This document shows positions 42,241 through 62,752 of a DNA stretch of 64,000 nucleotides, one piece after another. The notes beneath the pieces are model-generated. The model searched no databases. It worked only from the letters and a program-made list of their open reading frames with translations, and was not told where the DNA came from. This DNA is from an uncultured Gammaproteobacteria bacterium. Its GTDB lineage: Bacteria; Pseudomonadota; Gammaproteobacteria; Competibacterales; JAHEDQ01. The position numbers and the translations under genes are program-made. The stretch's first letter is position 1, and each line of letters opens with the position of its first letter. The stretch is from NCBI GenBank assembly GCA_963783675.1, contig CAWAOU010000010.1, positions 13,050 through 77,049 of the forward strand, written 5' to 3'.

Positions 42241-42375
42241 AGCAGCGTGTTGAAAAAGCCTCAATCGGAACGATATTGCGTTGAAATCGCCTTTAAAATG
42301 CTCATTTACTGGGTCTAAGCTGCGCTTTCCCCTTCATTTTTGCCTTGCCGTGCACTCGACCGAGCCTTATTCAAC
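42241..42375. mobile_element. Degenerate MITE-like intergenic element
   Basis: Imperfect TIRs gttgaaaaagcctc (42249-42262) and gagccttattcaac (42362-42375), 12/14. AT-richer interior aaaatgctcatttac...taagctgcgcttt. Abuts CTAG at the convergent gene's stop. Confidence 0.5.
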
Positions 42376-44373: not shown

Positions 44374-45513
44374 ATGTCAGCAACACCTAGCAGATTCGAC
44401 TCAGGCTCTCTTTCAGCGTTTACGAACATTGCCGTATTACTGGGTGCGCTTCTGTTGCTTTCGGCCTGTCAACAACAGGAACCCGCCCAAACTGAGGCGG
44501 TGCGGCCGGTTCGGGCCATGAAAGTGGGGGCGCTTGAGGACCTGGCGGGGCGCAGTTTTCCTGGCCGGGCCCGGGCCACTCAGGAGGTCGATCTGTCGTT
44601 TCGAGTTGCGGGTCCACTGATCGAGTTTCCGGTCAGTGTGGGGACCCGGGTTTCCACCGGTGGTTTGATCGCTCGCATCGACCCGAGGGACTTTGAGGTT
44701 CAGCAGCGTCAGGTGGAGGGCGAACTGCAGCGCGCCGTCGCCAATCGGACCCGGGCCAATAGCGAGTACCAACGACTGCTGGGGATACAGAAGCAGGGGA
44801 CCGGGCTGGTGAGCGAGGTCCAAGTGGATCGGGCCAAGGAGGATTACCAGATTGCCGAGGCGAATATCGCCACCTATGAGGCGTCTCTCGATGGCGCGCG
44901 GGACGCGGTTGGCTATACCCATCTCCTGGCACCGTTCGATGGCACTATCGTCGGGACCTTTGTCGAGAATTTCGAGTATGTCCAGGCCCGCCAGCCCATC
45001 GTGCGGCTGCTGGACAACACCCGGATTGAGTTCGAAATCAACGTGCCGGAAACGCTCATTTCCATGGTCCCACAGGTACAGAATCTGAGTGTGCGTTTCG
45101 ACGCTTTTCCGAGCCTGAACCTGTCCGCCGAGATCCTCGAGATCGGAGGGGAAGCGTCGACCACCACGCGGACCTATCCGGTCACCCTGATCATGGATCA
45201 GCCAGAGGGCTCGGAGATCCTGCCCGGGATGGCGGGCACTGCCACGGGCAATGCGCCGGATCGGACGGGCGGAGCCAGCGCGGGGATTGTGGTGCCCATG
45301 ACCTCGGTGTTTTCTCCCGCGGGCGGCGACCAAAGCTTTGTTTGGGTGATCGACCCGAACGCAGGGACGGTCACGCAGAGGCCGGTTACGCTGGGCGGGC
45401 TCAGTACCGGTGGCGTCACGGTACTCGCTGGCTTGGAGTTCGGCGAGGTCATCGCCATCGCCGGGGTGCATTTCCTGGTCGAAGGTCAGTCGGTTCGACC
45501 TGAAATGGAGTGA
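44374..45513 (+). CDS. RND efflux membrane-fusion (periplasmic adaptor) lipoprotein
   Basis: Lipobox LSAC, LSFRVAG, LAPFDG, TRTYPV, LPGM. Confidence 0.92.
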   Translation: MSATPSRFDSGSLSAFTNIAVLLGALLLLSACQQQEPAQTEAVRPVRAMKVGALEDLAGRSFPGRARATQEVDLSFRVAGPLIEFPVSVGTRVSTGGLIARIDPRDFEVQQRQVEGELQRAVANRTRANSEYQRLLGIQKQGTGLVSEVQVDRAKEDYQIAEANIATYEASLDGARDAVGYTHLLAPFDGTIVGTFVENFEYVQARQPIVRLLDNTRIEFEINVPETLISMVPQVQNLSVRFDAFPSLNLSAEILEIGGEASTTTRTYPVTLIMDQPEGSEILPGMAGTATGNAPDRTGGASAGIVVPMTSVFSPAGGDQSFVWVIDPNAGTVTQRPVTLGGLSTGGVTVLAGLEFGEVIAIAGVHFLVEGQSVRPEME

Positions 45514-45570
45514 GGGCATGACCAGGTTATTGCGAGCGCTCGGGTTGAACACCGCTACGGAGGGCGCCCA

Positions 45571-48500: not shown

Positions 48501-48708
48501 CACTACCGTGCTGGGCGTCGTCCCGTTACTGGGTGACGTATTCTGGGTTGGATTGTCCGTCACTCTGATGGCCGGGCTCAGTTTCGGCACCGTTTTGACC
48601 ATGGTGCTGGTGCCGGTTCTGTATACGATTGTTTACCGTGTTTCTTGGCAAGTCGCGGACCGGGATGATTCCAAGAGTACCGAGGCAGTGGTCCTGGGGA
48701 AGGTCTGA
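45571..48708 (+). CDS. RND efflux transporter permease (AcrB/AcrD/AcrF family)
   Basis: EDPEF, YPGASP, GMMVDNAIVV, MMIKNAVVL, RLRPV; 1045 aa. Confidence 0.95.
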   Translation: MSLTATAVNNRAVTYFGAVLLIVGGVFSFFQLGQLEDPEFTVKTAVITTQYPGASPQEVELEVTDRIELALQELKQLDYVSSYSRAGQSMVSVEIKAEYWLDQLPQVWDELRRKIRDVQAELPPGVGVPVISDDFGDVFGFQLAVIGDGFSYAEVERFAKDLKKEISIVEGVARVDLWGAQDEIIYLDVAQSQLAELGLSDASLENTLRQQNRVLDAGKLDIQAKRLRILPSGEFTSPADIADLVIRPSVLDEKQREAVGGGGELTRIRDIGSIRRGYREPPLTLMRYNGRPALGISVTNVSGANVVQVGQAIDRRLEELTANLPIGLEVRRVHWMSDVVAEAVDAFLISFAQALGIVLVVLTLAMGWRMGVIIGGALIVTILGTFILMAVFGIDLQRMSLGALIIALGMMVDNAIVVADGMAVRLQQGMERSRAAVEAASQPALPLLGATVVAVMAFYPIFASTEGAGEYCRTLFSVVAIALLVSWVVSVTMTPLQCIDLLPDPAAGSAQDDPYASGFYRRFRAVVGAAIRLRWLTVVTMIALLAIAVVGFGGVTKLFFPDASMGKFMIDVYAPEGTRIQQVALDLEQAESRLLADERVNGVSAFIGAGPPRFYLPVDPESADQAYAQLLVNVSDYRDIDGLVADIEPWLGARLQDSVISIRKFGVGPSNTWKFEARFSGPAEADPGVLRAISAQASAVLKASPLAGPVRTDWREPTLLMVADYSQERGRWASVTREDIALTTKRAFDGRDIGSYRERDVLLPILLRHVEEERRNVSGIDELQVQPAMSTYSVPLSQVTDGVNLSWEDPIIGRRDRRRTITVEANPIQGVTLPTLLASVREAFEAIELPPGYTLEWGGEYEDTLAAQASLLPGMVPAGAVVIFIIVALFNAYRPPLIILLTIPFALIGVVGGLLAFDVPFGFVALLGAMSLSGMMIKNAVVLLDQVNLNLTGGMAPYPAIVEAAVSRLRPVVLAAATTVLGVVPLLGDVFWVGLSVTLMAGLSFGTVLTMVLVPVLYTIVYRVSWQVADRDDSKSTEAVVLGKV

Positions 48709-49221: not shown

Positions 49222-49360
49222 GGATGATCCTTGAAACGCCCCGGGCGCTCCCCGCGAGTCGAAATCGGAGCCGGAATCGGCGGCACATTTGACTCAGATT
49301 CGGGGCAGAATAGGGCGTTTGTCAATGATGCGGGTGGTTCGGGGAGTTCGTCCAGACGCC

Positions 49361-50065
49361 ATGGGATATCACAGTGCATTCGGATGCGAGAGCCACGCCG
49401 GCCGGGTTCGCGACAACAACCAGGACGCAGCAAAGTCGGCGGCTGACCTGGGGCTTTGGATCGTGGCCGACGGCATGGGGGGTGAGGCGGCGGGTGAAGT
49501 GGCAAGTCGCCTGGCGGTAGATGAGATCGAAACCGCGATTCGGTCCGGGGACCCGCTGCCGGATGCGGTGACACGCGCCCACCGAAGCATCCGCGCGGCG
49601 CCGGCCAGGGGCTTTGGCTCCGCGGGCATGGGGTCGACGGTGGTGGTGCTCAAACTGCACTCACACCGCTATGAGATTGCCTGGGTCGGGGATAGCCGGG
49701 TCTACCTGCTTCGGCGTGGTGTTCTGACCCAACTGACGCGGGACCACTCCCTGGTTCAGGATCTGCTCGAAAGCGGCGCCATCTCGGTGATAGAGGCACA
49801 AGCTCACCCACACAGGAACATCATCACCCGAGTTCTGGGCGGGGATGCTGAACCGGTGGTCGACCAGTGTTCCGGCCGTGTTGATGCCGGCGACCTTTTC
49901 CTGCTCTGCAGCGACGGTCTCAACAACGAGATCGACGATGCCCGCATCCGTGACCTCCTGACCGCAGCCAAGGGACCAGAAGCCGCAGCGGCGGATCTGG
50001 TGGTGGCAGCGGTGGAGGCGGGGGGGCGAGACAATATCAGTGCGATGGTGGTCGCGGTCGATTGA
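49361..50065 (+). CDS. PP2C/PPM-family Ser/Thr protein phosphatase
   Basis: GRVR..NQD, VADGMGG, MGST, VGDSRVY, TRDHS, LCSDGL, GGRDNIS. Confidence 0.93.
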   Translation: MGYHSAFGCESHAGRVRDNNQDAAKSAADLGLWIVADGMGGEAAGEVASRLAVDEIETAIRSGDPLPDAVTRAHRSIRAAPARGFGSAGMGSTVVVLKLHSHRYEIAWVGDSRVYLLRRGVLTQLTRDHSLVQDLLESGAISVIEAQAHPHRNIITRVLGGDAEPVVDQCSGRVDAGDLFLLCSDGLNNEIDDARIRDLLTAAKGPEAAAADLVVAAVEAGGRDNISAMVVAVD

Positions 50066-50235: not shown

Positions 50236-52374
50236 TCAGACACGGCTGGCCCGGGTAGACAGTGCCCGCCGGTCCAAGTCCACCAGCACTTCGGTGTTGG
50301 AGAGCGGTGTCGCATTGGTCGATGATTCCGTGCCGGTGAAGGCGGCTGAATGCATGTGCCACCAGGCGCTGGCCTGCCCCTGGTCCCATTCCCCCCATGC
50401 CATGCAGTTCATCAGGCCCGCGCGGAACTCCGATGCGCCCGCGGGGCGGTCCGCCGGCTCCTTACTCAAACAGGTCAGGATAAGCGCCTCGAGATCCGCA
50501 GGGATCCCTGCGCCCGGTGCGCGTTGAGAGGGCGGTACAGGCGCGTCGTGAAGGTGTTTCGCGCATATCTCCACCGCGCTCTCACCGTCAAACACGTTGC
50601 TGCCGGTAAGCAACATGTAGCCGACTGCGCCCAGGGCGTAAAGGTCGCCCTGCGGGCTGGCTTGACCGGGGCTACTGATGATTTCGGGGGCCATATACAG
50701 GGGTGTGCCGATAAGCAGATTCGATTGGGTGAGATTTCCGTCGGTCTCGGCAATTTCCTTGACCAGACCGAAGTCCAGCACCTTGACCACGTCGAACAAT
50801 CCGCCGCGTTCGCAGAGAATCGCGTTGGACGGTTTGATATCACGGTGGATCAGCCTCTTGGCGTGGGCCTCGGCCAGAGAGCCCGCGATCTGCTCCAGTA
50901 TGTGTATAACCCGGGCGGGTGGCAGTGCACCCGCGAACTGTACCAGACGCTCCAGGGTGCCCCCGTTGAGAAATTCCATCGCATAGTAGAGGGTTCCGTC
51001 GGGGGTCCGGCCGTAGTCATAGATGGCGATGGTGTTGGGGTGGTTCAGATTGCTGGTGATCTGGACTTCATGCTCGAAGCGCTTGCGTGCCGAGTCGCTG
51101 CGCGCAAACTCCGGGTTCATCAGTTTGATGGCCGTGGGGCGCCGCAGCAATGCGTGGGTCGCCCGATACACCGCGCCGTTGCCACCCTCGCCGATCTTTT
51201 GTCGCAAACGATACTGTCCCAGTTTGCGTTCCACCCGATCCACCGCTGTTCTGACTTGTCGCCGTATGGATCGCATGGAGGTGACGAACACCAGACCTGC
51301 GATCAAAATCCCCGTCAGGCCGATGCCGGCCAGGGTGAGATTGCGCTGCGTGATCGTCGCGCCCAGAAAGTCGTCTTCGGGAATCAGCACCGCCACCCAG
51401 ACGGTGGTGTCCTCATCCAGCGACTCGGGCGAGAAGCCTGCCCACCAGGGGGCCCGGTCGGGTGTTCGGTATCGGGATATGCCTTGGGGTTGATCTGTTG
51501 CATACCACTGTGCCAAAGCGGCATCCAAGGCGGGTACTTTCAGCTCGGTGACCGGCGAGAGGACCGCCGAGAGCAGGGCGGATTCGTCCTCGAACCTTGG
51601 GTCGGGTGGCAGGCCGAGTGTCTCACCGTCCTGGGTAAAGATCACCGTCATGCCGTTGTCGCTTGGTCGAAGCTGCGTTGTTTGGTGGGAGATATCGATC
51701 AACGTGATGTTGAACGAGACCACATGCTCTGCTTCGCGCTGCAGCGGGCTCCATCGGCTGGATACCGATACGCCGGGTTGTTTGGTGGTGAGGAAGGTAT
51801 ACGGCGTGGTCCAGAACCCATGTCCGCTTTCGCGTGACATGGCGCCCTTGAACCAGGGTCGATCCACAGGCGAGACGTCGGTCTGACGAGTCCATTGTTC
51901 CACCACGACCCCATGAACCCGCCGCTGCCAGAGCGCCACATTGGGTGCCTCGGCCTCGATACCCCGGGTCAGGATCTCCCCGGGTCGCTTGATCAGGACG
52001 TACTCATTGCCGTCGGCATCGGCCAGGTTGATGGAATCCAGAAACGGAAACTGTGACAGAAACGGCGCCAACGCGCTGAACAAGGGATCCCGATGCCCGG
52101 GGCGGATGTCGTGGTGCTGGATTTGCCTTTGTGCCAGGTGAAGTCCGTCCTGGGCGTCATCGAACAGGTTCTGCAGGGTTTGTGCAGTGGCCTGCGTGTT
52201 GCTCTCAATCAGCCGTTTGGACAGGGAGGTGGTCAACCTGTGATCGAAGTAGAACAGTGAAGCTGTCGCCAGTACAGCGGTGACGATGGCGATCATCACC
52301 AGATTGCGCGCAAGGGGTCGGTAAAAACGGGCGAACTGGGAATCAAGCCCGTGGGTTTTTGCAAATGTCTTCAT
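50236..52374 (-). CDS. Membrane Hanks-type Ser/Thr kinase with periplasmic Cache-like sensor domain
   Basis: Two TMs flank an extracytoplasmic domain (RPWF…WTTPY..L). Kinase motifs GEGGNG, AIK, HRDIKPSN, DFG, GTPLYMAPE. Confidence 0.92.
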   Translation of the reverse strand: MKTFAKTHGLDSQFARFYRPLARNLVMIAIVTAVLATASLFYFDHRLTTSLSKRLIESNTQATAQTLQNLFDDAQDGLHLAQRQIQHHDIRPGHRDPLFSALAPFLSQFPFLDSINLADADGNEYVLIKRPGEILTRGIEAEAPNVALWQRRVHGVVVEQWTRQTDVSPVDRPWFKGAMSRESGHGFWTTPYTFLTTKQPGVSVSSRWSPLQREAEHVVSFNITLIDISHQTTQLRPSDNGMTVIFTQDGETLGLPPDPRFEDESALLSAVLSPVTELKVPALDAALAQWYATDQPQGISRYRTPDRAPWWAGFSPESLDEDTTVWVAVLIPEDDFLGATITQRNLTLAGIGLTGILIAGLVFVTSMRSIRRQVRTAVDRVERKLGQYRLRQKIGEGGNGAVYRATHALLRRPTAIKLMNPEFARSDSARKRFEHEVQITSNLNHPNTIAIYDYGRTPDGTLYYAMEFLNGGTLERLVQFAGALPPARVIHILEQIAGSLAEAHAKRLIHRDIKPSNAILCERGGLFDVVKVLDFGLVKEIAETDGNLTQSNLLIGTPLYMAPEIISSPGQASPQGDLYALGAVGYMLLTGSNVFDGESAVEICAKHLHDAPVPPSQRAPGAGIPADLEALILTCLSKEPADRPAGASEFRAGLMNCMAWGEWDQGQASAWWHMHSAAFTGTESSTNATPLSNTEVLVDLDRRALSTRASRV

Positions 52375-52388
52375 GCGTTTATGCGCGA

Positions 52389-54605
52389 TCAGCTGCGGTC
52401 TGTGTCCTTTGCCGGGCCGGAATCAGGGCCATTGTTGCCGGTCTTGTCGCCGGCAAGGGGCGTGCCGGGATTGGTTGCATCCGTTTCGGGTTGTCGTGCG
52501 GCGGCGGCCAGGCGGTCACGGGCTGCCTGCCGCAGCGGAGGCTGCGTCCCGGTTGCCATTCTCACCCTGGCGAGCAGCGGACCCAAGCGCGCCCAGATCT
52601 CCGCCGGAACCCGGTTTTCCAGGTATTCAAGTGCCGTGCCCCGAAGTCTGGCATCCCCACTCTGAAGGGCTTGCTGGCTGAGCTCTACGGTCTCGGGGTC
52701 GTAGACTGCCCCTAACAGCAGAAAGATCAGTTGCAGTGTCGAGCGCTCTGAGTCCTCAACCTTCGATTTGTTGGACGCATCCCTGCGGGCGAGGTATCGG
52801 GATTCCCGGGCGATCACCTCCAGCAGTCGGCGACGCGGGATGCGGAGTCCCGGTTGCAGCCGATGAATCGTCTCCAGCGCCTGCGCGCACCGGTAGCGAA
52901 CGTTCCACTCCTGTGTGGTGAGCGCCGCGACCAGACCTTCCACGGCAAGCGGACTGTCCGAATAGGCCATGGCCAGCGGTAGGCGGCGTCTAACCAGTGG
53001 ATGCTGAGTCGGCGTCAGTAAAGCGTCGACCAACTGGCCCGCGCCGGTGGAGGCGAATCGGCGAATACCCCGCAGCGCTTCTTTCACGAAACGGTCATCG
53101 GCCAGCAATGAGAGCACGTGAGGCAACAGTTCCGGGGTGATGGTCTGGCTGGCCAGAACCCGTTTGACCCGTACCGGACTTCCGCTCCGCAGTTCCATGA
53201 TGGACCGGACCACCGGATCTACGGTATCCGTCACCGGCATGGCCGCGGGCGCTGTCGCTGTGGCGCCGTTCCGGGTGCTGGCGATCTCCCGAAGGACCTG
53301 ATCGCGTTCGAGCGCGGTCGGGGGCAGGGCAAGGGTGTTGCCGGTGCTCGGGTCCACCATCGGTGAATCTTCGAGGACAAAACGCCCACTGCGCAGATTC
53401 CTGGCCAATTGCCGGACATAGTTGCGATGCAGCAAAAGAATCAACAGCAGGCAGATTCCGGCCAGCATGAGCGCAGCCAGCAACAACAGCGTCTCGTTGG
53501 CCACCGGAATCATCAAAATCGACATGATCAACAGGCCGCCGAGGAGATCGCCCGACCGGTCCGCTCCCACGTCGATCAGAATCTTGCCGGTGCGTTTGTC
53601 GGCCGGCGGAATTGGCGTGTACAAAACCTCGAATCCTGCGCGAAAGAACGAGTTGTAAAACAGGTTCGCGCTGGCTCGCATCAGGGTTGCGGTGACCAGT
53701 GAGCGAAAAACAAGCGCGCTGGCACCCGAAATCAGGATGGCCAGTGGCCATGCCGCCATCGTCCCGCCCAGTCCGAACCAGCGCAGCGCCCTGTCACCGA
53801 TCACAGACTGGACCAGGAAGGTGCCCAGGCCCACCGCCATGTAGAAATAGGAAAAAAACGTAATCAGATCCGCGTCGGACAAGCTGGCCGATGCCTCGGC
53901 CTTGAGCACGTAGTCCAGCACCGCGGCCGTGGTTGCCACCAGCAAAGCCAGCAAGGCCATGCGCCTGATCAGCGGGCTGCGTTTCAGCGGTTCGAGAAAG
54001 TTGGGCGGTGGTCCGCCACTGAGAGGGGGGCCAACGTGTCCCCGGGCGAGCACGCTGATGGCAAGGCCACAGACCAGATGCATGAGACTGAGCATGAGTA
54101 AGACCGCATGGGTGTCTGCCGCCGTGGCCACCGCGTTGGCGGCGATGCCCCCGACCAGGCCGCCGAACGTGGTTGCCGCCGTGAGCCGGGTGATGACTCG
54201 CTTGGCCGAATGCGGGTCGAAGCGCTCGTTGATCAACGACCAGAATCCGCTGATCAGAATCGAGTTGAGCGCCGAAATCTGGAGATACAGACACGCCGCG
54301 GCCAGCTTTGGATCCAGATCAGTCAAAAACCATTGCCCTACCAGCAAACCGGCGCTGATCAGGTACATAATGGGCATCAGCCGACCCGGGCCGGAGCGGC
54401 TGAGCAGCCTTGACATCAGGATCGCCGCCCCGATCGAGATGGCCGCACTGGCCATCATGATCTTTGGCAACTGGTCCACTTCGAAGTAGGTCAGAAACAA
54501 GGCGTCACGGGTTGCCTTGCCGGCAATATGCTGCGCGATCATGACCGCGGCGCCAAACATGGCGACCAGTGTGAGCGTTCGCTGTGTGTTGTGTGTGGTT
54601 GGCAA
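52389..54605 (-). CDS. NTT/TLC (Npt1/Npt2-like) nucleotide translocase-like MFS protein with C-terminal HEAT repeats
   Basis: ~12 TMs with KATRDALFL, FW....ERFD...AKR, E.LYTPIP…K..ID...R.GD patterns typical of the family. C-terminal helical repeats (VRRRLP.A, VRYRCAQAL, LRGTALEYL). TTG start uncertain. Confidence 0.7.
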   Translation of the reverse strand: MPTTHNTQRTLTLVAMFGAAVMIAQHIAGKATRDALFLTYFEVDQLPKIMMASAAISIGAAILMSRLLSRSGPGRLMPIMYLISAGLLVGQWFLTDLDPKLAAACLYLQISALNSILISGFWSLINERFDPHSAKRVITRLTAATTFGGLVGGIAANAVATAADTHAVLLMLSLMHLVCGLAISVLARGHVGPPLSGGPPPNFLEPLKRSPLIRRMALLALLVATTAAVLDYVLKAEASASLSDADLITFFSYFYMAVGLGTFLVQSVIGDRALRWFGLGGTMAAWPLAILISGASALVFRSLVTATLMRASANLFYNSFFRAGFEVLYTPIPPADKRTGKILIDVGADRSGDLLGGLLIMSILMIPVANETLLLLAALMLAGICLLLILLLHRNYVRQLARNLRSGRFVLEDSPMVDPSTGNTLALPPTALERDQVLREIASTRNGATATAPAAMPVTDTVDPVVRSIMELRSGSPVRVKRVLASQTITPELLPHVLSLLADDRFVKEALRGIRRFASTGAGQLVDALLTPTQHPLVRRRLPLAMAYSDSPLAVEGLVAALTTQEWNVRYRCAQALETIHRLQPGLRIPRRRLLEVIARESRYLARRDASNKSKVEDSERSTLQLIFLLLGAVYDPETVELSQQALQSGDARLRGTALEYLENRVPAEIWARLGPLLARVRMATGTQPPLRQAARDRLAAAARQPETDATNPGTPLAGDKTGNNGPDSGPAKDTDRS

Positions 54606-54915
54606 GGTTGAGTATGTCGACCCGCTGCAAGAAACCCAGTATGCCCTGTCCGATCAGGTTCGAAAAAATCTATGCGTTGCCTATTATCCGTAAGTGCCCG
54701 TCGCGGTGAGTGCCCGCCATGATCGGACTGATTCGACGGGCGCGACGGGGATGGTCGGTGCCGTGCGATATGGCACATGGGTGCATGGTTTAGATCGTAC
54801 AAGGGAATCGGCAAAGATATATATGAAACCGTCGCTTCCGACACTAAGCTTAGGTAGAATAGTGACACCGGGTGTCTTTCAGACATTGTGCTAAAGCCGT
54901 GGGGATATATTGACC

Positions 54916-55887
54916 GTGACCAGATTGGGTGAGCGTTTTGCGGGGGTGTCGCGCCGTTTGGTCCGACTGATGGTTCCTGTTCTGGTCGCCTCTGCGCCGC
55001 TTTCGCCGGTTCACAGTGCGCCCAGTATGCTCAGGCACAGCGCATCCATGAACACGGAGGAACTGGCGACCCATGCGGATGGCCAGCTTCAGCAAGCCCT
55101 GGAGAAACTTGTGCGTGAGCAGGGTCTCTGGGGTCAGGTCGCGTCTCACAGGCTCGCCCTGGGCTTGGTTGACGTGACCGATGTCGATGCGCCCCGCTAT
55201 GCGGCGCTGAATCCGAACCAGATGATGTATGCGGCGAGTCTGCCCAAGATAGCGATTCTTCTGGGCGCTTTCGTGGAAATTGGGGACGGGGAATTGAAGC
55301 TCGATCCCGGCCTGCGGGAAGAAATGGTTCGCATGATCCGGTTCTCGGACAATGCCTCTGCCACCCGGGTGCTGGAACGGGTGGGCCGCCAGGATCTGAT
55401 CAACATCCTCACTTCGGACAAGCTCAAACTATACGATCGGGATTTCAATGGCGGCCTGTGGGTGGGCAAGGACTATGCCCGCAACAACGCCTATCAGCGG
55501 GACCCCCTGAGCAACCTCTCCCACGGCGCCACCATCTATCAGGTCGCACGGTTCTTCTATCTTCTGGAAAAAGGGCAACTGGTGGCGCCTCGCTACCGCA
55601 CCGACATGATGCGGATCCTGTCCAAGCCCGGCATCTCGCACAAGTTCGTGGCCGGCCTCAAAAATCACCCGGAAGTGCGCATGTATCGTAAGTCCGGTAC
55701 CTGGCGTGACTATCATGCTGACGCCGCCCTTGTGGAGACCGACAGCCACCGCTACATCATCGTTGGCTTGGCCCAGCATAAGGAGGCTGGGAAATGGTTT
55801 TCTCGACTGGCAGAGCCGATGCACAACCTGGTGGTGAACTGGCCGGCGTCAGCCAACGGACGTCAGCGGGTTGCACTGCGTCCTTGA
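54916..55887 (+). CDS. Serine hydrolase of class A beta-lactamase/PBP fold (no ExxLN omega-loop motif seen)
   Basis: SxxK (SLPK), SDN, KSG. N-terminal export signal. Start uncertain (54910-54970). Confidence 0.85.
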   Translation: MTRLGERFAGVSRRLVRLMVPVLVASAPLSPVHSAPSMLRHSASMNTEELATHADGQLQQALEKLVREQGLWGQVASHRLALGLVDVTDVDAPRYAALNPNQMMYAASLPKIAILLGAFVEIGDGELKLDPGLREEMVRMIRFSDNASATRVLERVGRQDLINILTSDKLKLYDRDFNGGLWVGKDYARNNAYQRDPLSNLSHGATIYQVARFFYLLEKGQLVAPRYRTDMMRILSKPGISHKFVAGLKNHPEVRMYRKSGTWRDYHADAALVETDSHRYIIVGLAQHKEAGKWFSRLAEPMHNLVVNWPASANGRQRVALRP

Positions 55888-55930
55888 GCCCCTAATCCAA
55901 TCTGTTTGAGTCTGATCTGCGTATGATTGA

Positions 55931-57232
55931 TCAGTTTCCCGTCGCCGCCTGTTCGACCGAACTGGGCTCAGCCGGATGCATCTGCTCCATGATGGTCTGG
56001 ATATGAGTTGCGAGGGATTGGTGTTCGTAAGCTGAGTTCTTGCGCAACACGTTCGAGATCAGCATCACCATGTATCTCAGTCGTTGACCTTCGGCCGGAC
56101 TTTCGACGATGGCGAACGAGTTCATATAGTTTTTCACGTTCCCCTTGTACTTCTCGCACTTGAAACCGGGTTCCTCCTTACAGCTATACAGGGAGCCCGA
56201 CTTGAAGTAGACCGCTGAATCGGCCAGCTTCGGGGCCGATGCGTAGCGTATGCGGCGCTCGGTCACATAGATCAGCCGTTTGATCTGGCGGCTGGAAAAG
56301 ACGTCCACCAAACGCCCCTGTTCCATACGCAGCCCATACTCCATCAGGGAACGCGCCGTGGCGTAGCTGGGCCCGGGTCCAGGCACCACCTTCTTGCCCT
56401 GGTGGGTAAAGAAACTGGCCTGACGAAATGACTCGAGATCGAATCCGTTGCGCACCAGGGGCTCCATGAACGTCCGTTCGAACAGCGCGGTGAGTTCAGG
56501 CTTGGGCGTTTCCTTGAAGAATCGTTTGATCTCGGCTTCCGGCGGCGGATACTCAGGTCCGTACTGGCGCATCAACATGGCCTCGCGCATGACCATGCCG
56601 GCGGCGGAGTTGGAGCTGGGGGATAGCATCCAATCCAGATACTCCCACAGGCTTGCCTGATCGCCATCGCGGATCGTGCGTCGTGTCAGGGTCTGGGTCT
56701 CAACATTGAACAGACGCACCGTGTGGTGGTCGGTGTGCGCGAACTGATCGGCGGTGACGACGGTCTCCCTCAGCACCCGGACGCGATCCGCCTGGTCCGG
56801 CCAGATGTCCGCCAGGGCCTGAAAGACCGACAGCACCACCACCAGTTTACCGACGCTGCCGACGTTCTGGCGAAAGTCGCCCCGATGTTCTGCGTACTTG
56901 AGATTCGGCAGTTCGGACAGGTCGAGGGCCGCGATGCCGTATCGGTCGGCCTGTCCGCCCAGCCGTTTAACGATCTGCCGGGTAAATTCCGGGTCGGCCG
57001 GGGGCAGTTCCAGATCCGGGTGGTTGAGCAGCCTCAGATCAACCGCATCGGTTGACAACAGGGCGCCCGGCGGCTGTTTCGAGCCCTTGATTATGCCTTC
57101 GTTGGCGAGACGGGAGGCCTCGAGACGTCGAATCCCGGTATCCGCATAGCCATCCAGAGGATAGCTCTGGGTGAGGGCCGGCATGATCAGTGTGAGCCCG
57201 AGTAGAAGTCCGGCAATGCGAGAGCCTTTCAT
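55931..57232 (-). CDS. Secreted divergent PBP/beta-lactamase-fold protein
   Basis: Signal peptide, SVGK (SxxK), SSN (SxN), KSG, Cys pair CKEEPGFKC. ATGA overlap with the upstream dikinase stop. Confidence 0.7.
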   Translation of the reverse strand: MKGSRIAGLLLGLTLIMPALTQSYPLDGYADTGIRRLEASRLANEGIIKGSKQPPGALLSTDAVDLRLLNHPDLELPPADPEFTRQIVKRLGGQADRYGIAALDLSELPNLKYAEHRGDFRQNVGSVGKLVVVLSVFQALADIWPDQADRVRVLRETVVTADQFAHTDHHTVRLFNVETQTLTRRTIRDGDQASLWEYLDWMLSPSSNSAAGMVMREAMLMRQYGPEYPPPEAEIKRFFKETPKPELTALFERTFMEPLVRNGFDLESFRQASFFTHQGKKVVPGPGPSYATARSLMEYGLRMEQGRLVDVFSSRQIKRLIYVTERRIRYASAPKLADSAVYFKSGSLYSCKEEPGFKCEKYKGNVKNYMNSFAIVESPAEGQRLRYMVMLISNVLRKNSAYEHQSLATHIQTIMEQMHPAEPSSVEQAATGN

Positions 57233-60141
57233 TGGGCCGGCACCTGGTTGAGGTTTACGGATATGCCCGACGTGGCGGCCAGGGTCTTATCCATTTCAAC
57301 CAGATAGGTGTTGCCCCGAGCGCTGCCGCTTTCCAGGAACGGGCGGATCTGGAACAAACGGAACTCACCGTCAACAAACCCAAACTCGACATCGGCTGCG
57401 GCGGGTCGACCGCTGTCGTCAAGTATCGATGGAAATCGCTGCGGCAATTCGTCTCGGGCGAACACGATCAGACGCTCTATTTCTGCTGGCTGCAGAACCG
57501 CATCGGCACCGGTCGCAGGCAGTTTCTCGATTCCGCTTGCCGGGCCCGGGCGCCGTCGCCAGGGGGCAGTCGCGGTGGCCAGCAGCTGAACAGAACCGTC
57601 ACGGGTGTCGATGCGCAGGGATTCCGCCGCCTGCCCATCCACGGCTCCACCCACACCTTCATTGATCGCCACCGATACGATGGCCCGGTCTCCGGTCTCC
57701 AGATCCTGAGTAACCAGCACGCCCGACTTGTCCGACGCCACCGATTTCAAAAGCAGAATCGAGGTAAACACATACTCGGGGTTTTCCATGTGCGACTGAC
57801 GCCAGGCGAAGGCGCGGGCGGTAAACGGCGATGCCCAGACACGGTTGATGGACTGCAGCAGATTGTCAAAACCCACCACATTGGGCAGGGTCAAGTTCAA
57901 TCCCGCTCCGGTGAAGCCGGGCAGATCCTCTACATTGGTGTCGGATCGAACGAACACGCCCACGTCGGCGCTGCCAAAGGTTTCCACCATGGCGGCACGG
58001 AGTTGATCCTGGAACCCGGCGCTGGGCTGGGTGTTCAGGATCAGATCATACAATTCGGCGCGAAACGCTTCGGTTTGTTGCTCCCGCTCGGCGGATCCCT
58101 GCGGCAGCCCGGCCAGGATTCCGTACTGTGCCACCATCCACTCAAACACGCTTTGCCCACCGCCTTTGTAGGGTCGATCCAGTACTTCAGCCTTGAAAAT
58201 GCCAAAAGGAATGGCGACGCCCTCGGCAACGGCACCTGGAAAGGCGTGCCGCAATTCCCCCAGCTTGGCTGCCTTGGGTCCGACGGTTCGACCCGAATCG
58301 CTGGCGCGCAATTGGTCCAGCGGGGCGAACGAGTGCATGGTCAGATCAAGCTTGTCCAGATCGGGACGAATCACCACATCGCTGGCGCCCTGGCCTTGCC
58401 CCAGACGTGCCGCCCACGCATCATCGAACGGATCGAGCTCCACCAGCCCGGCCGGACTCACTGCAAGCACAACCTCCTTGGCGTCATGGGGCAACAGGGT
58501 CTCGATCAGGCTTTCGTCCATGGCCACGTTCGGTATGCCGAGATTGCGCGCCAGCAATTGGACGTGGGACAGGGGATTGCCCTCACCCGCGGTCATGATA
58601 CCGGCGACCGGGGGCAGGTCGGACACGGTTTCCGGCAGTACGTAGATGCCGCGGGGTTCAAACTCCTCCATGCGTTCCAGGTCCGGACGGGCGTGGAGCA
58701 CGCCCACCGCGAGGCCCGGATTGAGGGCCTGGAAACCCACCCCCACGTCCTTGCCAAATACTTTATGCCTCACACCGGCCAGGCGATTGCCGTCTCGGGT
58801 AAGACCGTCCAGCACCTGGGAGTAAAACAGCAGCGGGCTGCCCCGGAGCTGATCCTGGATGAACAGCAACGCCTTGGGCTCGATCTCGGCCAGTTTTTGC
58901 ATGGACTCAAAGAAAACAAAGCGCAGGTTCTGAGTTGCCCAGCCCGGAACCCGCCCCAGGTAGCGCAGCTCGGCGCGGTACTTGTCCAATGAAATCTCTG
59001 GACCGGTCATGGCGGCCAGACTCTCCTGCAATGCCTGGTGTTCGCGGGCTTTGATTACCCCGGTGCCGTAGGCCGCATCCGCAGTGCTGCCTATAATCCG
59101 CAGGCGCTCGTCACGGGTGGCATTGCCCAGGCCCTCGCGAAGTTCGACGCCGGAGCTGAAATTCTCGGTTTCCACGGTGAGGCTGAGATCCAGCAAACGC
59201 AGCCGCGCCGCGGGTTGCCTCACCCGAGGCAGGGCATCGCGCAAATCGGCCAGGAGTTTGCCACTGACCCGGTAGCGATTGCCCGCGGACGGATCGGCGC
59301 TCAACTGCGCAGCGGCATCCCGGAGCAACGCCTGCAGCCACGGGCCACCGCTGAAGACCCGTGCATTGGACTCCAGCACATCGGTCAGCGGTTCGGCCTG
59401 ATAAATCTGGTCGATGGACTCGGCCAGTGCCTCAAGTCGCTTTCTCAGGGCCGGATCGGCGACGTCGCCGGCATAGCGTCTAACCCGGTCCGCGTCGCTG
59501 GCCTCGGGCGAGCCATGAATCTTGACCCGTGTGGACATGAAGCCCGGGTCCATATCCGACAATGCGGCCGATTCCTGGCGGACCTTCTGGGCTGAAGCGG
59601 TTTCCTTGCCATGGGGGAGCAACCGGACTCCGATGCGCAGTCCTGGGAATCGTGGACCAATCCAATCCGGTTGCGCGGCCAGATACTCGAGCAGAGCCCG
59701 GGCACCTTCCCGTTCGTCCTCTTCCTGGATAGCACCGCGATAGAACAGTGCCTGACGCAGAATCCAGCCGTCGTCGGCGCCGGTCAGGTAGCGTTCGATC
59801 AGAATCTGCGCGAACAGGTCGTTGAAGTCGGGTTGTCCGGCGAGTTCTGCCGCATCGATGCCCGCCAGCAAGTTCGCCACCAGGTATCCCTGCTGACGCA
59901 ACTCGAGGGTCTGCTTGCTCCACTCGCCATGTTGATGGCCGCCGCCCCGAGACTCGCAGGGATAGGGTTTCGGTGGATGGGCCGTGCCGTCGTTGCAAAA
60001 CCAGCGAAGACGATCGAACGGACCTCGGGGTGCCGCCTTCATGTCCTCGATCCACTGGCGGTAGGTGTCGGTGTCCTGCGCAAGCACCGTCAGCGGTACC
60101 ATACTCAGGGCGACAACGAGGGTCAGCATCAAACGTCGCAT
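57229..60141 (-). CDS. Secreted PEP-utilising-enzyme-superfamily dikinase-like protein (helical domain - phospho-His domain - C-terminal ATP-grasp)
   Basis: ATG 60141 with Sec signal MRRLMLTLVVALSMVPLTVLA/QD. His motif PLSHVQLLARNLGIPN. ATP-grasp motifs VGPKAAKL, VRSDTNVEDLPGFTGAGL, VWASPF, SGV, DVEFG..FQIRP. No pyruvate-binding TIM barrel. Confidence 0.85.
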   Translation of the reverse strand: MRRLMLTLVVALSMVPLTVLAQDTDTYRQWIEDMKAAPRGPFDRLRWFCNDGTAHPPKPYPCESRGGGHQHGEWSKQTLELRQQGYLVANLLAGIDAAELAGQPDFNDLFAQILIERYLTGADDGWILRQALFYRGAIQEEDEREGARALLEYLAAQPDWIGPRFPGLRIGVRLLPHGKETASAQKVRQESAALSDMDPGFMSTRVKIHGSPEASDADRVRRYAGDVADPALRKRLEALAESIDQIYQAEPLTDVLESNARVFSGGPWLQALLRDAAAQLSADPSAGNRYRVSGKLLADLRDALPRVRQPAARLRLLDLSLTVETENFSSGVELREGLGNATRDERLRIIGSTADAAYGTGVIKAREHQALQESLAAMTGPEISLDKYRAELRYLGRVPGWATQNLRFVFFESMQKLAEIEPKALLFIQDQLRGSPLLFYSQVLDGLTRDGNRLAGVRHKVFGKDVGVGFQALNPGLAVGVLHARPDLERMEEFEPRGIYVLPETVSDLPPVAGIMTAGEGNPLSHVQLLARNLGIPNVAMDESLIETLLPHDAKEVVLAVSPAGLVELDPFDDAWAARLGQGQGASDVVIRPDLDKLDLTMHSFAPLDQLRASDSGRTVGPKAAKLGELRHAFPGAVAEGVAIPFGIFKAEVLDRPYKGGGQSVFEWMVAQYGILAGLPQGSAEREQQTEAFRAELYDLILNTQPSAGFQDQLRAAMVETFGSADVGVFVRSDTNVEDLPGFTGAGLNLTLPNVVGFDNLLQSINRVWASPFTARAFAWRQSHMENPEYVFTSILLLKSVASDKSGVLVTQDLETGDRAIVSVAINEGVGGAVDGQAAESLRIDTRDGSVQLLATATAPWRRRPGPASGIEKLPATGADAVLQPAEIERLIVFARDELPQRFPSILDDSGRPAAADVEFGFVDGEFRLFQIRPFLESGSARGNTYLVEMDKTLAATSGISVNLNQVPAQ

Positions 60142-60376
60142 TTGACTCTCCGAAGATCTGGGGTTCGGCGGTGATGATTCGAGACGGTCAGAATCGCTGG
60201 AAGGGGACGATACCAGATTCTGCGCTTTTTTGAGATGGGCCTGGGATGCGCTGTCGGTATCGACGCCACGGTGGCGTCCGGACCCACTTACATTGACAGA
60301 CGGCCGCGTTGATCCGCCTGCTACCTTTTCGCCCGCCCGCGTCAAGTGTTTCTGGGCGCCGGGCCGAAGATGGACA

Positions 60377-61141
60377 TCATTCGGGTCGGTCGGCTGACTC
60401 GGCAGACACGCTCTCGACCCGGTTTCGTCCCAGCCGTTTGGCGGCATACAAGGCCGCGTCCGCCCGGGCAACCATAGCCTCGCTGTCGTCGCCGGCAGCG
60501 AATGCAGTAACGCCAAAGCTGGCGGTAATGTGTCCCAACTCTCCCAGATCCGCCTGTTCGATCCGTGTCCGTATGCTGTTGGCCAGGGACGCTCCTCCCT
60601 GGGTGTTGGAATGGAGCGATATGACCATGAATTCCTCACCGCCCCAACGCCCGACCAGGTCCGTTGCACGTACGGTGGATCGGACCACACCGGCGAGGGC
60701 GGCCAGAACCCGGTCGCCTGCCTGATGGCCGTAGACGTCGTTGACCGACTTGAAGTGATCCACGTCCATCATAAGCAGACAAAACCCGGTCTCATAACGA
60801 GCGGCGCGCCTGATTTCGGTTTCAAGCAGTTCTGTGATGCGGCGTCGATTGTAAAGGGATGTCAGCGCATCTTCCTGGGACAGGCGGATGACCTCGCTGC
60901 GAAGCAACTGGTCTTGTCGGATCGACCGGACGCCGATCACGCCGGGTACGATCAGAGCGAGCAGGGAGAAGAAGGCCGCGGTGCCCACGAACTCCCAGCG
61001 CTCGCGGTTGGTTTCCGTGCGGTGATCGTGGAACACGCGGGGCAGCAGCCTGTCTTCAAGACAAAACTCCCAGGCGAGGCTCAGCAGAACCACGGTCGCG
61101 AAAATGGCCAGGAGCGTAGCGAAAAAATCCTTCTGACTCAT
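60377..61141 (-). CDS. Two-TM diguanylate cyclase (GGEEF)
   Basis: DALT.LYNRR, DVDHFKSVND.YGH..GD, I-site RATD, GGEEF, ADAALY.AK..GRN. Confidence 0.92.
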   Translation of the reverse strand: MSQKDFFATLLAIFATVVLLSLAWEFCLEDRLLPRVFHDHRTETNRERWEFVGTAAFFSLLALIVPGVIGVRSIRQDQLLRSEVIRLSQEDALTSLYNRRRITELLETEIRRAARYETGFCLLMMDVDHFKSVNDVYGHQAGDRVLAALAGVVRSTVRATDLVGRWGGEEFMVISLHSNTQGGASLANSIRTRIEQADLGELGHITASFGVTAFAAGDDSEAMVARADAALYAAKRLGRNRVESVSAESADRPE

Positions 61142-61221: not shown

Positions 61222-62445
61222 TTAACCGACCGTCACCTTGCTTCCAGGGTGCAGGGTCTTACCCAGTATGTGCTCATCCTGATTAACGATGTGAGAGGCG
61301 TGGCCGACGATCAGAGGGTCGACCTTGACCAGCTTCGTATTCTTGTCCGGGTAGGGCAGAGTGGACAGGAAATGGCGCATGCAATTCAGGCGCGCGCGCT
61401 TCTTGTCGTCGGACTTGACCACCACCCATGGCGCATCCGCCGTGTCGGTGTAGAAGAACATGGCTTCCTTGGCCTCGGTATAGTCTTCCCACTTCTCCTG
61501 CGCGAGCTTGTCGATCGGGCTGAGTTTCCACTGTTTGAGCGGGTCCAATTTGCGCTTCTTGAACCGTGCCGTCTGCTCTTCCTGCCGGACCGAAAACCAG
61601 TACTTGAACAAATGTACACCGCTGCGCACCAGCATCCGTTCCAGTTCCGGCGTCTGTCGCATAAACTCCAGATACTCCTGGGGTTCGCAAAATCCCATGA
61701 CGCGCTCAACGCCGGCGCGGTTGTACCAGGATCGGTCGAACATCACCAGTTCACCTGCAGTGGGCAGGTGTTTCACATAGCGCTGGAAATACCACTGACC
61801 CCGCTCCTCGTCAGTGGGCTTTTCCAGGGCGACCACACGGGCACCGCGAGGATTCAGATGTTCCATGAATCGTTTGATGGTGCCGCCCTTGCCGGCCGCG
61901 TCGCGCCCTTCGAAAATCAACACGATGCGTTGACCGCTGTCTTTGACCCATTTCTGGACCTTGAGCAGTTCGACCTGAAGCGCCTGCTTCTGCTTTTCGT
62001 AGTGCTTACGGGTGACCTTGGTCTTGTATGGGTAATCCCGCGACCGGAAGGAGGCAAGGATGGTCGCATGGTCCGTTGGGGGCTTGGCCGGGTCATGCAC
62101 ATGATGCTTAGTCTTCGGAGCCTTGGTGCCGGATGATTCCTCAGCGGGGGGCTGCGCATCCGCAACCTTGGCGCCGGGTGATTCCTTACCGGGGGACTGC
62201 ACATCCGGAACCTTGGCGCCGGGTGATTCCTTACCGGGGGACTGCGCATCGGCCGTTTCCGGTCCGGCAGTTTCCTTGGCAGTGGGTTCCGCAACCTGCA
62301 TTTCGGTGACGGCACCCGCGTTCGCGGTTCCGGAAGATCGTTTGCGTCTGGCCCTCGTCTTGGGCTGCGTATCAGCGGTCGCCTGGACCTCAGTGCTGAC
62401 CGACGCGTCGTCAGGGGTTTGAGTGGCTGTCTTCGAATCCGTCAT
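61222..62445 (-). CDS. ppk2: Polyphosphate kinase 2 with long low-complexity N-terminal extension
   Basis: FEGRDAAGKGG (Walker A), WYFQRY, FDRSWYNRAGVERVMGF, KQWKLSP. About 125-aa disordered N-terminus. Confidence 0.95.
   Translation of the reverse strand: MTDSKTATQTPDDASVSTEVQATADTQPKTRARRKRSSGTANAGAVTEMQVAEPTAKETAGPETADAQSPGKESPGAKVPDVQSPGKESPGAKVADAQPPAEESSGTKAPKTKHHVHDPAKPPTDHATILASFRSRDYPYKTKVTRKHYEKQKQALQVELLKVQKWVKDSGQRIVLIFEGRDAAGKGGTIKRFMEHLNPRGARVVALEKPTDEERGQWYFQRYVKHLPTAGELVMFDRSWYNRAGVERVMGFCEPQEYLEFMRQTPELERMLVRSGVHLFKYWFSVRQEEQTARFKKRKLDPLKQWKLSPIDKLAQEKWEDYTEAKEAMFFYTDTADAPWVVVKSDDKKRARLNCMRHFLSTLPYPDKNTKLVKVDPLIVGHASHIVNQDEHILGKTLHPGSKVTVG
62121..62250 (-). repeat. 45-bp (15-aa) in-frame tandem repeat, about 3 copies, within ppk2
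   Basis: Units start at 62121, 62166 and 62211 (ccttggcgccgggtgattccttaccgggggactgc…), encoding DAQSPGKESPGAKVP / DVQSPGKESPGAKVA / DAQPPAEESSGTKAP. Confidence 0.92.
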
Positions 62446-62752
62446 ATCTAACTCGCTCGAACCTGTGGTGGATGATAAATCTTGAGCAGTAATCAAACCG
62501 AGCACCGCGCATCGGTGGATGCGTCAAGCGGCAGCATGTCTGGCGCTTATGTGGTAACGGCCATGTGACTGTCCCTGCCGTATTCTTCTATTCGCACGAC
62601 CCAGCTTGCGCAGTGGAACTCGCAACACCTGCTGCCTGAATCACGATCACTGCTTGGATCAAATTGATGCAAGCAAGCGCATCAATCTTACCATCGTACC
62701 ATTGGAGCCTTGGGTAACAGCGATCAATTGATCGAATCTTGATCCAGGTCAG

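Follow-up and report, generated by a model that had tools for sequence, protein, structure and literature searches.

The window analysed here, a stretch of 64,000 nucleotides from an uncultured gammaproteobacterium (contig CAWAOU010000010.1, positions 13,050 to 77,049), contains a minus-strand gene that is predicted to encode an exported dikinase 970 aa long. We call this protein P0001, and residue numbers follow it throughout. An earlier note, made from the sequence alone, had read the protein as an exported dikinase with the domain order of plant α-glucan water dikinase (GWD). Together with genes for two β-lactamase-fold hydrolases and a carrier of the TLC/NTT family, the dikinase gene forms a conserved four-gene module. 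In the window, the genes of this module are as follows.

57229..60141, minus strand: predicted exported dikinase gene, 970 aa (P0001), stop codon included, called from the open reading frame (ORF), its translation, the ribosome-binding site (RBS) and homologues
55931..57232, minus strand: hydrolase 1, a putative exported β-lactamase-fold serine hydrolase of 433 aa, directly downstream of the dikinase gene and translationally coupled to it
54910..55887, plus strand: hydrolase 2, a putative exported β-lactamase-fold serine hydrolase of 325 aa from a mechanical TTG start, convergent
52389..54605, minus strand: polytopic TLC/NTT-like carrier with C-terminal HEAT repeats, 738 aa, called from Pfam and hydrophobic segments

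The dikinase gene and its neighbourhood

The mechanical ORF of the dikinase spans 57229..60690 on the minus strand, and its probable start is the ATG at 60141. An RBS (GGAGAG, 60151-60146) lies 4 nt 5' of this ATG. Homologues from other genomes begin to align with P0001 within residues 1-30, and the extension of the ORF to 60690 is therefore mechanical. From this start codon the protein opens with a stretch that resembles a signal peptide.

60079..60141, minus strand: signal-peptide-like N-terminus (residues 1-21), consisting of MRR, an 18-residue hydrophobic core and a cleavage site between VLA and QD that was read from the sequence

A hydrophobicity scan found one hydrophobic segment in P0001, at residues 4-22. 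We aligned 94 family members that are 30-73% identical to P0001, and scored an N-terminus as signal-like when a 12-residue window had a mean Kyte-Doolittle value of at least 1.5. A hydrophobic N-terminus ahead of the conserved mature start was found in 92 of the 94; the two members below this value are P0185 (-0.23) and P0264 (1.36). P0001 has only two cysteines, Cys49 (WFC49) and Cys62 (YPC62), which are 13 residues apart and invariant in 94/94 aligned members. Both are carried by a small β-hairpin in the AlphaFold2 model, an arrangement that would suit a disulfide in an oxidising compartment. The family-wide signal-like N-termini and the invariant cysteine pair thus support export of the dikinase. 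The earlier note had claimed a Sec signal peptide, an N-terminal cysteine pair and an extracytoplasmic site of action, and these claims hold up at the level of sequence. It had also said that a true start lacking the signal peptide would overturn its reading; the ATG at 60141 with its RBS keeps the signal-like N-terminus.

Were the N-terminal stretch not a signal peptide, or the start codon miscalled, P0001 would be an ordinary permuted small-molecule dikinase of the cytoplasm. The length of the mechanical ORF leaves room for this reading, as does the fact that the signal peptide was read from the sequence without a dedicated predictor. However, the hydrophobic N-terminus recurs in many lineages, the RBS precedes the ATG at 60141 and the region upstream of it is not conserved, the cysteine pair is invariant, and the partner proteins are all predicted to be exported or membrane proteins. 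We regard a cytoplasmic location as very improbable.

The neighbourhood was compared over 23 loci, comprising approximately 8 kb on each side of the dikinase gene from 20 genomes, two named loci and the window. Hydrolase 1 lies downstream of the dikinase in 22 of the 23 loci, on the same strand in 21/21 and with an approximate gap of no more than 20 nt in 13/21. In the window, its ATG overlaps the TGA of the dikinase gene (ATGA). The Pfam Beta-lactamase2 (PF13354) match of hydrolase 1 is 20.9 bits, under the gathering score of 22, while its Atlas clusters are 91-94% PF13354; the motifs SxxK, SSN and KSG and a cysteine pair are invariant in its 22 orthologues. Hydrolase 2 is found in 20/23 loci, matches Beta-lactamase2 at 64.3 bits, and has SLPK, SxN and KSG conserved in its 20 orthologues. 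All examined orthologues of both hydrolases have signal-like N-termini. Solved β-lactamases are very distant relatives; the best match of a hydrolase profile in the PDB was OXY-1 with a marginal E of 0.11. The presence of two partners with the fold of penicillin-binding proteins (PBPs) and β-lactamases suggests a substrate that is related to the cell wall, resembles D-Ala-D-Ala, or is a xenobiotic acting in the periplasm.

Beyond the module, no other conserved gene family was found across the 23 loci, the remaining "families" being antisense ORFs of the module genes, and no gene for glucan synthesis or degradation and no mobile-element gene was seen among the conserved neighbours. PADLOC matched none of the four module genes, and assigned a neighbouring kinase gene to generic Ser/Thr-kinase defence models only. 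A scan of 54500-60500 for promoters and terminators gave counts no higher than those in shuffled sequence. In two genomes of one genus, a gene for a 912-aa TPR protein (L041:10765-13503, minus strand) lies between the dikinase gene and hydrolase 1, and in the scanned flank of L041 a gene for a SelO adenylyltransferase (L041:15005-16498, minus strand) follows hydrolase 1.

Domain order and relatives of the dikinase

A full-length AlphaFold2 model of the dikinase, with the 94 family sequences as input, reached a pLDDT of 93.0 and a pTM of 0.90. In this model a helical N-domain (24-457) is followed by a β-rich swivel (459-580), a linker, and an ATP-grasp domain that extends to approximately residue 963.

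58771..60072, minus strand: N-terminal helical domain, residues 24-457, presumed to bind the acceptor, from AlphaFold2 models and invariant columns
58402..58767, minus strand: His swivel (phosphocarrier) domain, residues 459-580, with the predicted catalytic His526 in LSHVQLLARNLGIPNV, from Pfam, profile, VIA and conservation
57253..58341, minus strand: C-terminal ATP-grasp nucleotide-binding domain, residues 601-963, from Pfam PPDK_N, VIA and invariant residues

The swivel contains the motif LSHVQLLARN (residues 524-533, window 58543-58572), which falls inside a Pfam PEP-utilizers (PF00391) match at 503-541 that is weak (E 6.8e-4; 19.6 bits, under the gathering score of 23.1). The assignment is supported by the family profile, which aligned with the swivel of phosphoenolpyruvate (PEP) synthase 8a8e (i-E 5.7e-5) with the SH motif in register, and by VIA superposition on the swivel of rifampin phosphotransferase (RPH; 5fbu residues 758-867), with Z 9.6 and a root-mean-square deviation (rmsd) of 3.1 over 106 residues. 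The ATP-grasp domain is matched by Pfam PPDK_N (PF01326) at 620-940 (E 5.1e-21; 75.7 bits against a gathering score of 27), and this match includes the motif RSDTNVEDL..G..GAGL (residues 732-748). By VIA it superposes on RPH 5hv1 with Z 32.0 and rmsd 2.9 over 308 residues at 21% identity, on PEP synthase 2ols with Z 30.0, on HpeI 9goj with Z 26.7 and on pyruvate phosphate dikinase (PPDK) 1dik with Z 19.8; its top Foldseek match had an E of 8e-13. Apart from PPDK_N and PEP-utilizers, P0001 has no Pfam match at E<=0.01. There is no PEP-utilizers_C match at that threshold and no β/α barrel in the model, as expected from the claim in the earlier note that the pyruvate-binding barrel is missing. 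Its other structural statements, a His motif, a C-terminal ATP-grasp, a helical region of about 450 aa, and the order substrate domain - His - ATP-grasp, are likewise borne out by the Pfam matches and the model.

Across the 94 sequences S525, H526, K623, R732, S733, D734, T735, N736, E738 and D739 are invariant, as are E919, Q931 and R933 in the ATP-grasp. In the profile alignment, the invariant catalytic positions coincide with two motifs of PEP synthase, VRSSATAEDL and DIEW...QSRP, which indicates that the catalytic apparatus of a His-dependent dikinase is intact and under selection. With both a PPDK_N-type ATP-grasp and a swivel bearing the predicted catalytic histidine, P0001 is by its sequence a member of the PEP-utilising/dikinase superfamily. 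That the protein is both exported and catalytically competent is a prediction we make with good confidence.

The N-domain differs from the rest of the protein in having no detected relatives. Folded alone from 23 sequences, it reached a pLDDT of 91.8. Its invariant residues (G40, W47, C49, C62, W126, R135, G136, Q139, E143 and H209) all lie in the first 200, and the motifs GGGxQHGE, DDGW, YRGAxQxEDE and RxKIH are nearly invariant. No Pfam domain was found at E<=0.01 in residues 1-500, and hence no CBM45, CBM20 or other carbohydrate-binding Pfam domain. Comparison with the PDB yielded nothing significant by Foldseek (top E 0.12) or by matching the N-domain profile to PDB sequences (top E 0.33). 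A wide VIA scan gave generic helix bundles only, at Z<=11.5 over 89 residues and within model residues 226-435, and a second scan had a top Z of 10.7. In the ESM Atlas the matches were fragments of the dikinase's own family only, and a search of short proteins with residues 24-230 gave 147 matches, mostly contig-end fragments, with no clear stand-alone domain. We thus describe the N-domain as a domain of approximately 430 aa without detected relatives, and do not claim a new fold because residues 24-225, where the invariant residues sit, were barely covered by VIA. With its many Trp, Asp/Glu, His and Arg residues, the invariant cluster would suit a sugar or a phosphate-bearing ligand. A predicted complex of the N-domain with the downstream hydrolase scored 0.00 with a mark of 0.32, which speaks neither for nor against binding.

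We compared this architecture with that of known dikinases. PEP synthase and PPDK share with P0001 the PPDK_N ATP-grasp and the PEP-utilizers swivel with its SH motif, and the catalytic residues align. By contrast, their order is ATP-grasp - His - TIM barrel, whereas P0001 has no barrel and its histidine precedes the ATP-grasp; in the profile alignment with PEP synthase 8a8e, the ATP-grasp corresponds to 100-368 of that chain and the swivel to 378-467. PEP synthase 8a8e has Thr at -2 from the histidine (TSH). P0001 has Leu524 at this position, and the regulatory Thr of PEP synthase is thus missing from it. Identity as a PEP synthase was rejected, since P0001 scores 84.9 bits with NF005057 (cut-off 598) and 84.4 bits with TIGR01418 (cut-off 739.75), matching over the ATP-grasp only. 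A true PpsA, scoring 1276 bits, is encoded on a different contig of this genome. The statement in the earlier note that this is not a PEP synthase was therefore right.

RPH (PDB 5hv1, 5fbs, 5fbu) provides the best structural match of the ATP-grasp and a swivel that superposes, and it shares the logic of a three-domain small-molecule dikinase with a helical domain for the second substrate. It differs in order, which is ATP-grasp - substrate - His (ATP-grasp at chain 1-315, His domain at 758-867), so that the dikinase is a cyclic permutation of it, and RPH is cytoplasmic whereas P0001 bears a signal-like peptide. Identity as an RPH was rejected on scores of 71.7 bits with NF041857 (cut-off 999) and 48 with NF000283 (cut-off 1700), and on the permuted order. 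In phenylphosphate synthase and its kin (HpeHI/CreHI/PpsAB), the substrate domain and swivel histidine are on one protein and the ATP-grasp on another, according to the accessible text of PMC12167813. Fused in that order, the two proteins would have the architecture of the dikinase. They differ from it in being two proteins rather than a single exported chain, in having no detectable kinship in the substrate domain, and in acting on phenolics in cytoplasmic catabolism among genes for aromatic degradation, whereas the dikinase is found with envelope genes. The order of substrate domain, histidine and ATP-grasp is explained equally well by cyclic permutation of an RPH-type protein or by fusion of a two-component dikinase.

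The closeness of the ATP-grasp to RPH raises the alternative that the module inactivates xenobiotics or antibiotics in the periplasm. Cytoplasmic phosphorylation of rifampin by RPH would be the model: the dikinase would phosphorylate an incoming toxic compound with a periplasmic site of action, and the hydrolases would cleave this compound or ones related to it. The accessible part of PMC12167813 places RPH in a broad family of small-molecule dikinases, and the Beta-lactamase2 assignment of both hydrolases, with SxxK, SxN and KSG, would fit such a role. However, no likeness of the N-domain to the RIF-binding domain was detected: RPH was absent among its Foldseek, VIA and profile matches, with the limited VIA coverage of residues 24-225 noted above. 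Moreover, the residues of the presumed pocket are invariant over 94 sequences as divergent as 30% identity, the module is single-copy and syntenic across 24 genera, and its conserved neighbours include no mobile-element gene. Because of the invariant pocket and the single-copy syntenic module, a housekeeping substrate fits better than a variable resistance target, and we consider this alternative unlikely.

The comparison with GWD that underlay the earlier note is only partly sustained. In GWD the catalytic His domain precedes a C-terminal PPDK-type ATP-binding domain and the acceptor-binding parts are N-terminal, according to the accessible text of PMC13553574. The dikinase resembles GWD and its relative PWD in the order of these last two domains and, if the chemistry predicted for it is correct, in transferring the β-phosphate. 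It differs in that GWD has CBM45 modules and a central domain whereas the N-terminus of the dikinase is all-helical without a CBM, and in that GWD is plastidial whereas the dikinase is bacterial and predicted to be extracytoplasmic. We compared GWD by domain order rather than by sequence. Among the structures compared, a set that included no GWD, those nearest to the ATP-grasp are RPH and PEP synthase, and likeness to GWD is supported for the order of the last two domains only. The earlier note had also called for a Foldseek comparison; this gave the ATP-grasp a strong match, and left the N-domain without a significant relative.

A bacterial analogue of GWD could phosphorylate a periplasmic glucan, such as the osmoregulated periplasmic glucans, or a hydroxyl of another polysaccharide. 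Besides the domain order shared with GWD (PMC13553574, accessible text), the composition of the invariant N-domain cluster speaks for this, as sugar-binding sites often have such residues, and the closest relative of P0001 comes from a record titled Candidatus Competibacteraceae. Against it, the protein has no carbohydrate-binding Pfam domain, glucan genes are absent among the conserved neighbours, and the partners have a peptidase/β-lactamase fold and are not glycosidases. We judge it quite improbable that the dikinase is such an enzyme.

The family is large. Of 7999 candidates scored in a word-indexed protein search, at least 1115 reached E<=0.001; the top 120 are all 958-1001 aa long and 61-75% identical to P0001. 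HMMER, run exhaustively over representatives at 50% identity, found 450 clusters at E<=1e-30. Among proteins related at E<=1e-10 none was longer than 1698 aa, which is weak evidence that fusions are absent. The nearest named record, at 95% identity, is titled as a Candidatus Competibacteraceae metagenome-assembled genome. Dikinase genes were found in 27 of 301 sampled Gammaproteobacteria genomes (24 of 271 genera) and in 30 of 401 sampled Pseudomonadota, 22 of these 30 being from one genus of another class. Source names of homologues are "hypothetical" or "PEP/pyruvate-binding domain-containing protein", and family fragments are named "phosphoenolpyruvate synthase, partial" or "pyruvate phosphate dikinase, partial" in databases, as the earlier note had anticipated for annotation pipelines. 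In a literature search that left most subscription journals and supplements outside its reach, no publication came up that describes an exported or periplasmic dikinase with this architecture or a link of such an enzyme to NTTs. The dikinases form an uncharacterised family of a known superfamily, with a new domain order, acceptor domain, compartment and genetic partnership.

The TLC/NTT-family carrier and its link to the dikinase

The window carrier has nine hydrophobic segments and a marginal Pfam TLC match (22.5 bits against a gathering score of 21), and its MFS_1 and HEAT_2 matches are under their cut-offs. At other loci a short form of approximately 430 aa matches Pfam TLC at 52.8-70.7 bits. 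With TIGR00769, the model for NTP/NDP exchangers, the linked carriers score 23.5-62 bits (23.5 for the window carrier, 50-62 for the others scored) against a cut-off of 387.2. NTTs and fusions of NTTs with HEAT repeats are widespread in free-living bacteria and have no known function, according to the accessible text of Major et al. (PMC5381601), which proposes no link of NTTs to an exported enzyme. The linked carriers resemble the NTT/TLC transporters in their Pfam TLC matches and in the HEAT fusion shared with the described NTT-HEAT proteins, and differ in being far from characterised ATP/ADP exchangers by TIGR00769.

A TLC-like gene is present in 19/23 of the locus stretches, and in 20/23 within about 10 kb if G129, where it is 8 kb from the dikinase, is counted. 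The remaining three loci comprise two genomes of one genus with TLC elsewhere in the genome and one where the contig ends. HEAT-fused and short carriers occur together at three loci. An orthologue of the HEAT-fused carrier was found in 9/301 genomes, 8 of which have the dikinase; a quick maximum-likelihood tree of the family groups all eight loci of the HEAT type in a clade of 12 rows (SH-aLRT 100) that leaves out the short-carrier loci.

We examined co-occurrence by searching 300 of the 301 Gammaproteobacteria genomes (G248 was unscored) with Pfam TLC. Matches were found in 45/300 genomes, comprising 27/27 with the dikinase and 18/273 without it, the dikinase-positive genomes falling in 24 genera. 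These counts include the unpublished genomes G039 (both genes) and G296 (TLC only), without which they are 26/26 and 17/272. Six of the 18 TLC-only genomes have canonical NTTs at 350-695 bits, five of these genomes being 1.2-1.9 Mb in size and one 3.1 Mb, whereas the dikinase-linked matches score 21-71 bits. In other classes of the phylum, the carrier adjoins the dikinase in G369, G490 and G409 (in G409 by family profile, E 8e-100) and is elsewhere in the genome in G447. From these results, the carrier is probably coupled functionally to the dikinase.

The complete genome G626 provides a natural control. Its homologue (L056:7057-9972, plus strand) is 971 aa long, has a signal-like N-terminus and keeps the N-domain signature. 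However, it carries the replacements S525W, H526R, K623Q, R732L, D739G, E919R and R933L, is matched by no Pfam model, and has a very long branch in the quick tree. Hydrolase genes do not adjoin it, and neither Pfam nor the family profile gave a TLC match in G626. In this single case, loss of the carrier goes together with the predicted loss of ATP/His chemistry, and the homologue may be a pseudoenzyme that retains acceptor binding only.

A second, shorter exported family (L057:5878-7968, plus strand; L058:6177-8153, plus strand) consists of an N-terminal part of approximately 200-350 aa, a swivel and a PPDK_N domain scoring 179-189 bits. It is represented by a 696-aa ORF with a lipoprotein-like LAAC motif in G460 and by a 658-aa protein with a signal-like N-terminus in G662. 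These proteins have only the swivel and ATP-grasp in common with the dikinase family and keep the catalytic residues. Exported dikinases may thus be a broader phenomenon.

The association of the two genes has a second possible explanation, in which the carrier is not the supplier of ATP. The dikinase would use environmental or leaked nucleotide, and the TLC-like protein would import the phosphorylated product or AMP as a form of scavenging. Characterised NTTs are importers or exchangers with diverse substrates, as stated in the accessible text of PMC5381601, and extracellular ATP at nanomolar levels is reported for several bacteria in that of 10.64898/2026.03.22.713542. In addition, intact exported proteins of the dikinase type occur in G381, G460 and G662, where no TLC match was found. 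Yet nanomolar ATP is below the Km of the only periplasmic ATP enzyme studied, according to the latter source. Co-occurrence in 27/27 genomes and adjacency would be needed under either explanation and so do not discriminate between them, and the G626 case fits supply and product uptake equally. We give little credence to scavenging.

Three further sets of genes were observed besides the module. The first is an accessory gene 14 nt downstream of the carrier gene.

50236..52374, minus strand: Ser/Thr protein kinase with a Cache-like sensor domain

It matches Pfam Pkinase at 157 bits and dCache_1 at 26.5 bits, under the cut-off of the latter, and has homologues in 6/23 loci. A PP2C phosphatase gene (49289-50065, plus strand) adjoins it on the other strand, and the pair may be a regulatory layer on the carrier. 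The second is another TLC-like gene of the genome that contains the window, on contig C16 (L054:400-1821, plus strand; 473 aa, Pfam TLC 32 bits), which is convergent with an M28 peptidase gene. Its product shares 42% identity with its orthologue at locus L004, where that gene is the dikinase's divergent neighbour. The third comprises other genes of the window. A PPK2 polyphosphate kinase gene (61222-62505, minus strand; 352 bits) has an N-terminal extension of approximately 160 aa that includes a 45-nt tandem repeat at 62121-62250 (2.9 copies, 90% matches) encoding a PGKESPGAKV-type unit; this gene and a GGDEF gene (60377-61141) are found with the dikinase in no other locus than that of the 95%-identical relative. 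An RND efflux pair (44374-48708, plus strand), consisting of an HlyD-type adaptor and an AcrB-type pump (490 bits), and a gene for a 589-aa TPR protein (42375-44144, minus strand) upstream of the module are not conserved with it.

A possible route for phosphorylation in the periplasm

In the textbook view the periplasm is without ATP, and extracytoplasmic processes are driven by other energy sources. The module suggests a different arrangement, in which the dikinase would act in the periplasm as the core of the four-gene module. ATP would bind to the C-terminal ATP-grasp, and His526 on the swivel would accept the β,γ-pyrophosphoryl group with release of AMP. The γ-phosphate would be lost to water, and the swivel would carry the β-phosphate to an acceptor held on the N-terminal helical domain. 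Both hydrolases would act on the same envelope substrate as the dikinase. The TLC/NTT carrier in the inner membrane would supply nucleotide, most simply by moving ATP out in exchange for AMP or ADP. These chemical steps are drawn by homology with PEP synthase, PPDK and RPH, and the location and the direction of transport are likewise inferred. With three proteins of the module predicted to be exported and the fourth a homologue of nucleotide carriers, supply of periplasmic ATP by the carrier is the simplest coherent model, and it would remove the obstacle at which an ATP-dependent enzyme in the periplasm would otherwise fail.

There is a precedent for an extracytoplasmic enzyme that requires ATP. 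Lig E bears a signal peptide and needs ATP outside the cytoplasm, and the supply of this ATP is called an outstanding question in the accessible text of 10.64898/2026.03.22.713542. Lig E differs from the dikinase in its unrelated fold and chemistry, and that text mentions no dedicated carrier gene and describes lig E as being without syntenic partners.

Several observations weigh against the proposed route. The periplasm has classically been regarded as devoid of ATP (10.64898/2026.03.22.713542, accessible text). The mechanism leans on homology. The N-domain is presumed to hold the acceptor from its position and conservation only. The linked carriers are, by sequence, distant from characterised NTTs and could import a product instead. 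The co-occurrence counts are not independent among related genomes, and fusion to HEAT repeats is the mark of one clade. There are exceptions as well: the draft genome G381 (360 contigs, 97% complete) yielded no TLC match although its dikinase is intact and followed by hydrolase 1, and the genomes G460 and G662, with the shorter family, yielded none either.

On the supporting side, contigs from RNA libraries (four runs of sediment metatranscriptomes from two studies) are at least 99% identical to parts of the three exported genes. They cover hydrolase 2 completely (54875-55890) and hydrolase 1 in pieces, six further pieces lie on the dikinase, and one contig spans the junction of dikinase and hydrolase 1 (57119-57277). 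They give neither strand nor level and may reflect DNA carry-over. None of them lies on the carrier gene (52389-54605), which proves nothing.

Taking these points together, we lean slightly towards a periplasmic His-dependent dikinase that phosphorylates an envelope acceptor with ATP supplied by the carrier and works with the two hydrolases. Within this proposal, it is evenly balanced whether the acceptor is a component of the cell wall or of another part of the envelope rather than a xenobiotic. Supply of ATP to the periplasm as the nature of the coupling between carrier and dikinase is plausible, with a chance a little short of even. More tentative still is a dedicated energy supply for the envelope, in which a divergent NTT/TLC carrier exports ATP, the dikinase phosphorylates the acceptor, and the two PBP-fold hydrolases process it. 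The link between dikinase and carrier hints that some bacteria deliberately feed ATP to the outside of the inner membrane.

The family defines a new domain order in the dikinase superfamily and a new domain of approximately 430 aa without detectable relatives. Its members are mislabelled in databases as PEP synthase or PPDK, an error that would skew the metabolism reconstructed for many uncultured bacteria of marine and sediment habitats. Together with the two unstudied β-lactamase-fold enzymes, the new domain and domain order could reveal a phosphorylated envelope component or a route of detoxification. A conserved exported ATP enzyme that is tied genetically to a carrier homologue makes the source of ATP for enzymes such as Lig E testable, and the same tie does so for the role of NTT-type carriers in free-living bacteria. 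If the proposed route is true, it would be the first described programmed delivery of ATP to the periplasm for a resident kinase, and would assign a role to the NTT and NTT-HEAT genes that free-living bacteria carry and that have long gone unexplained.

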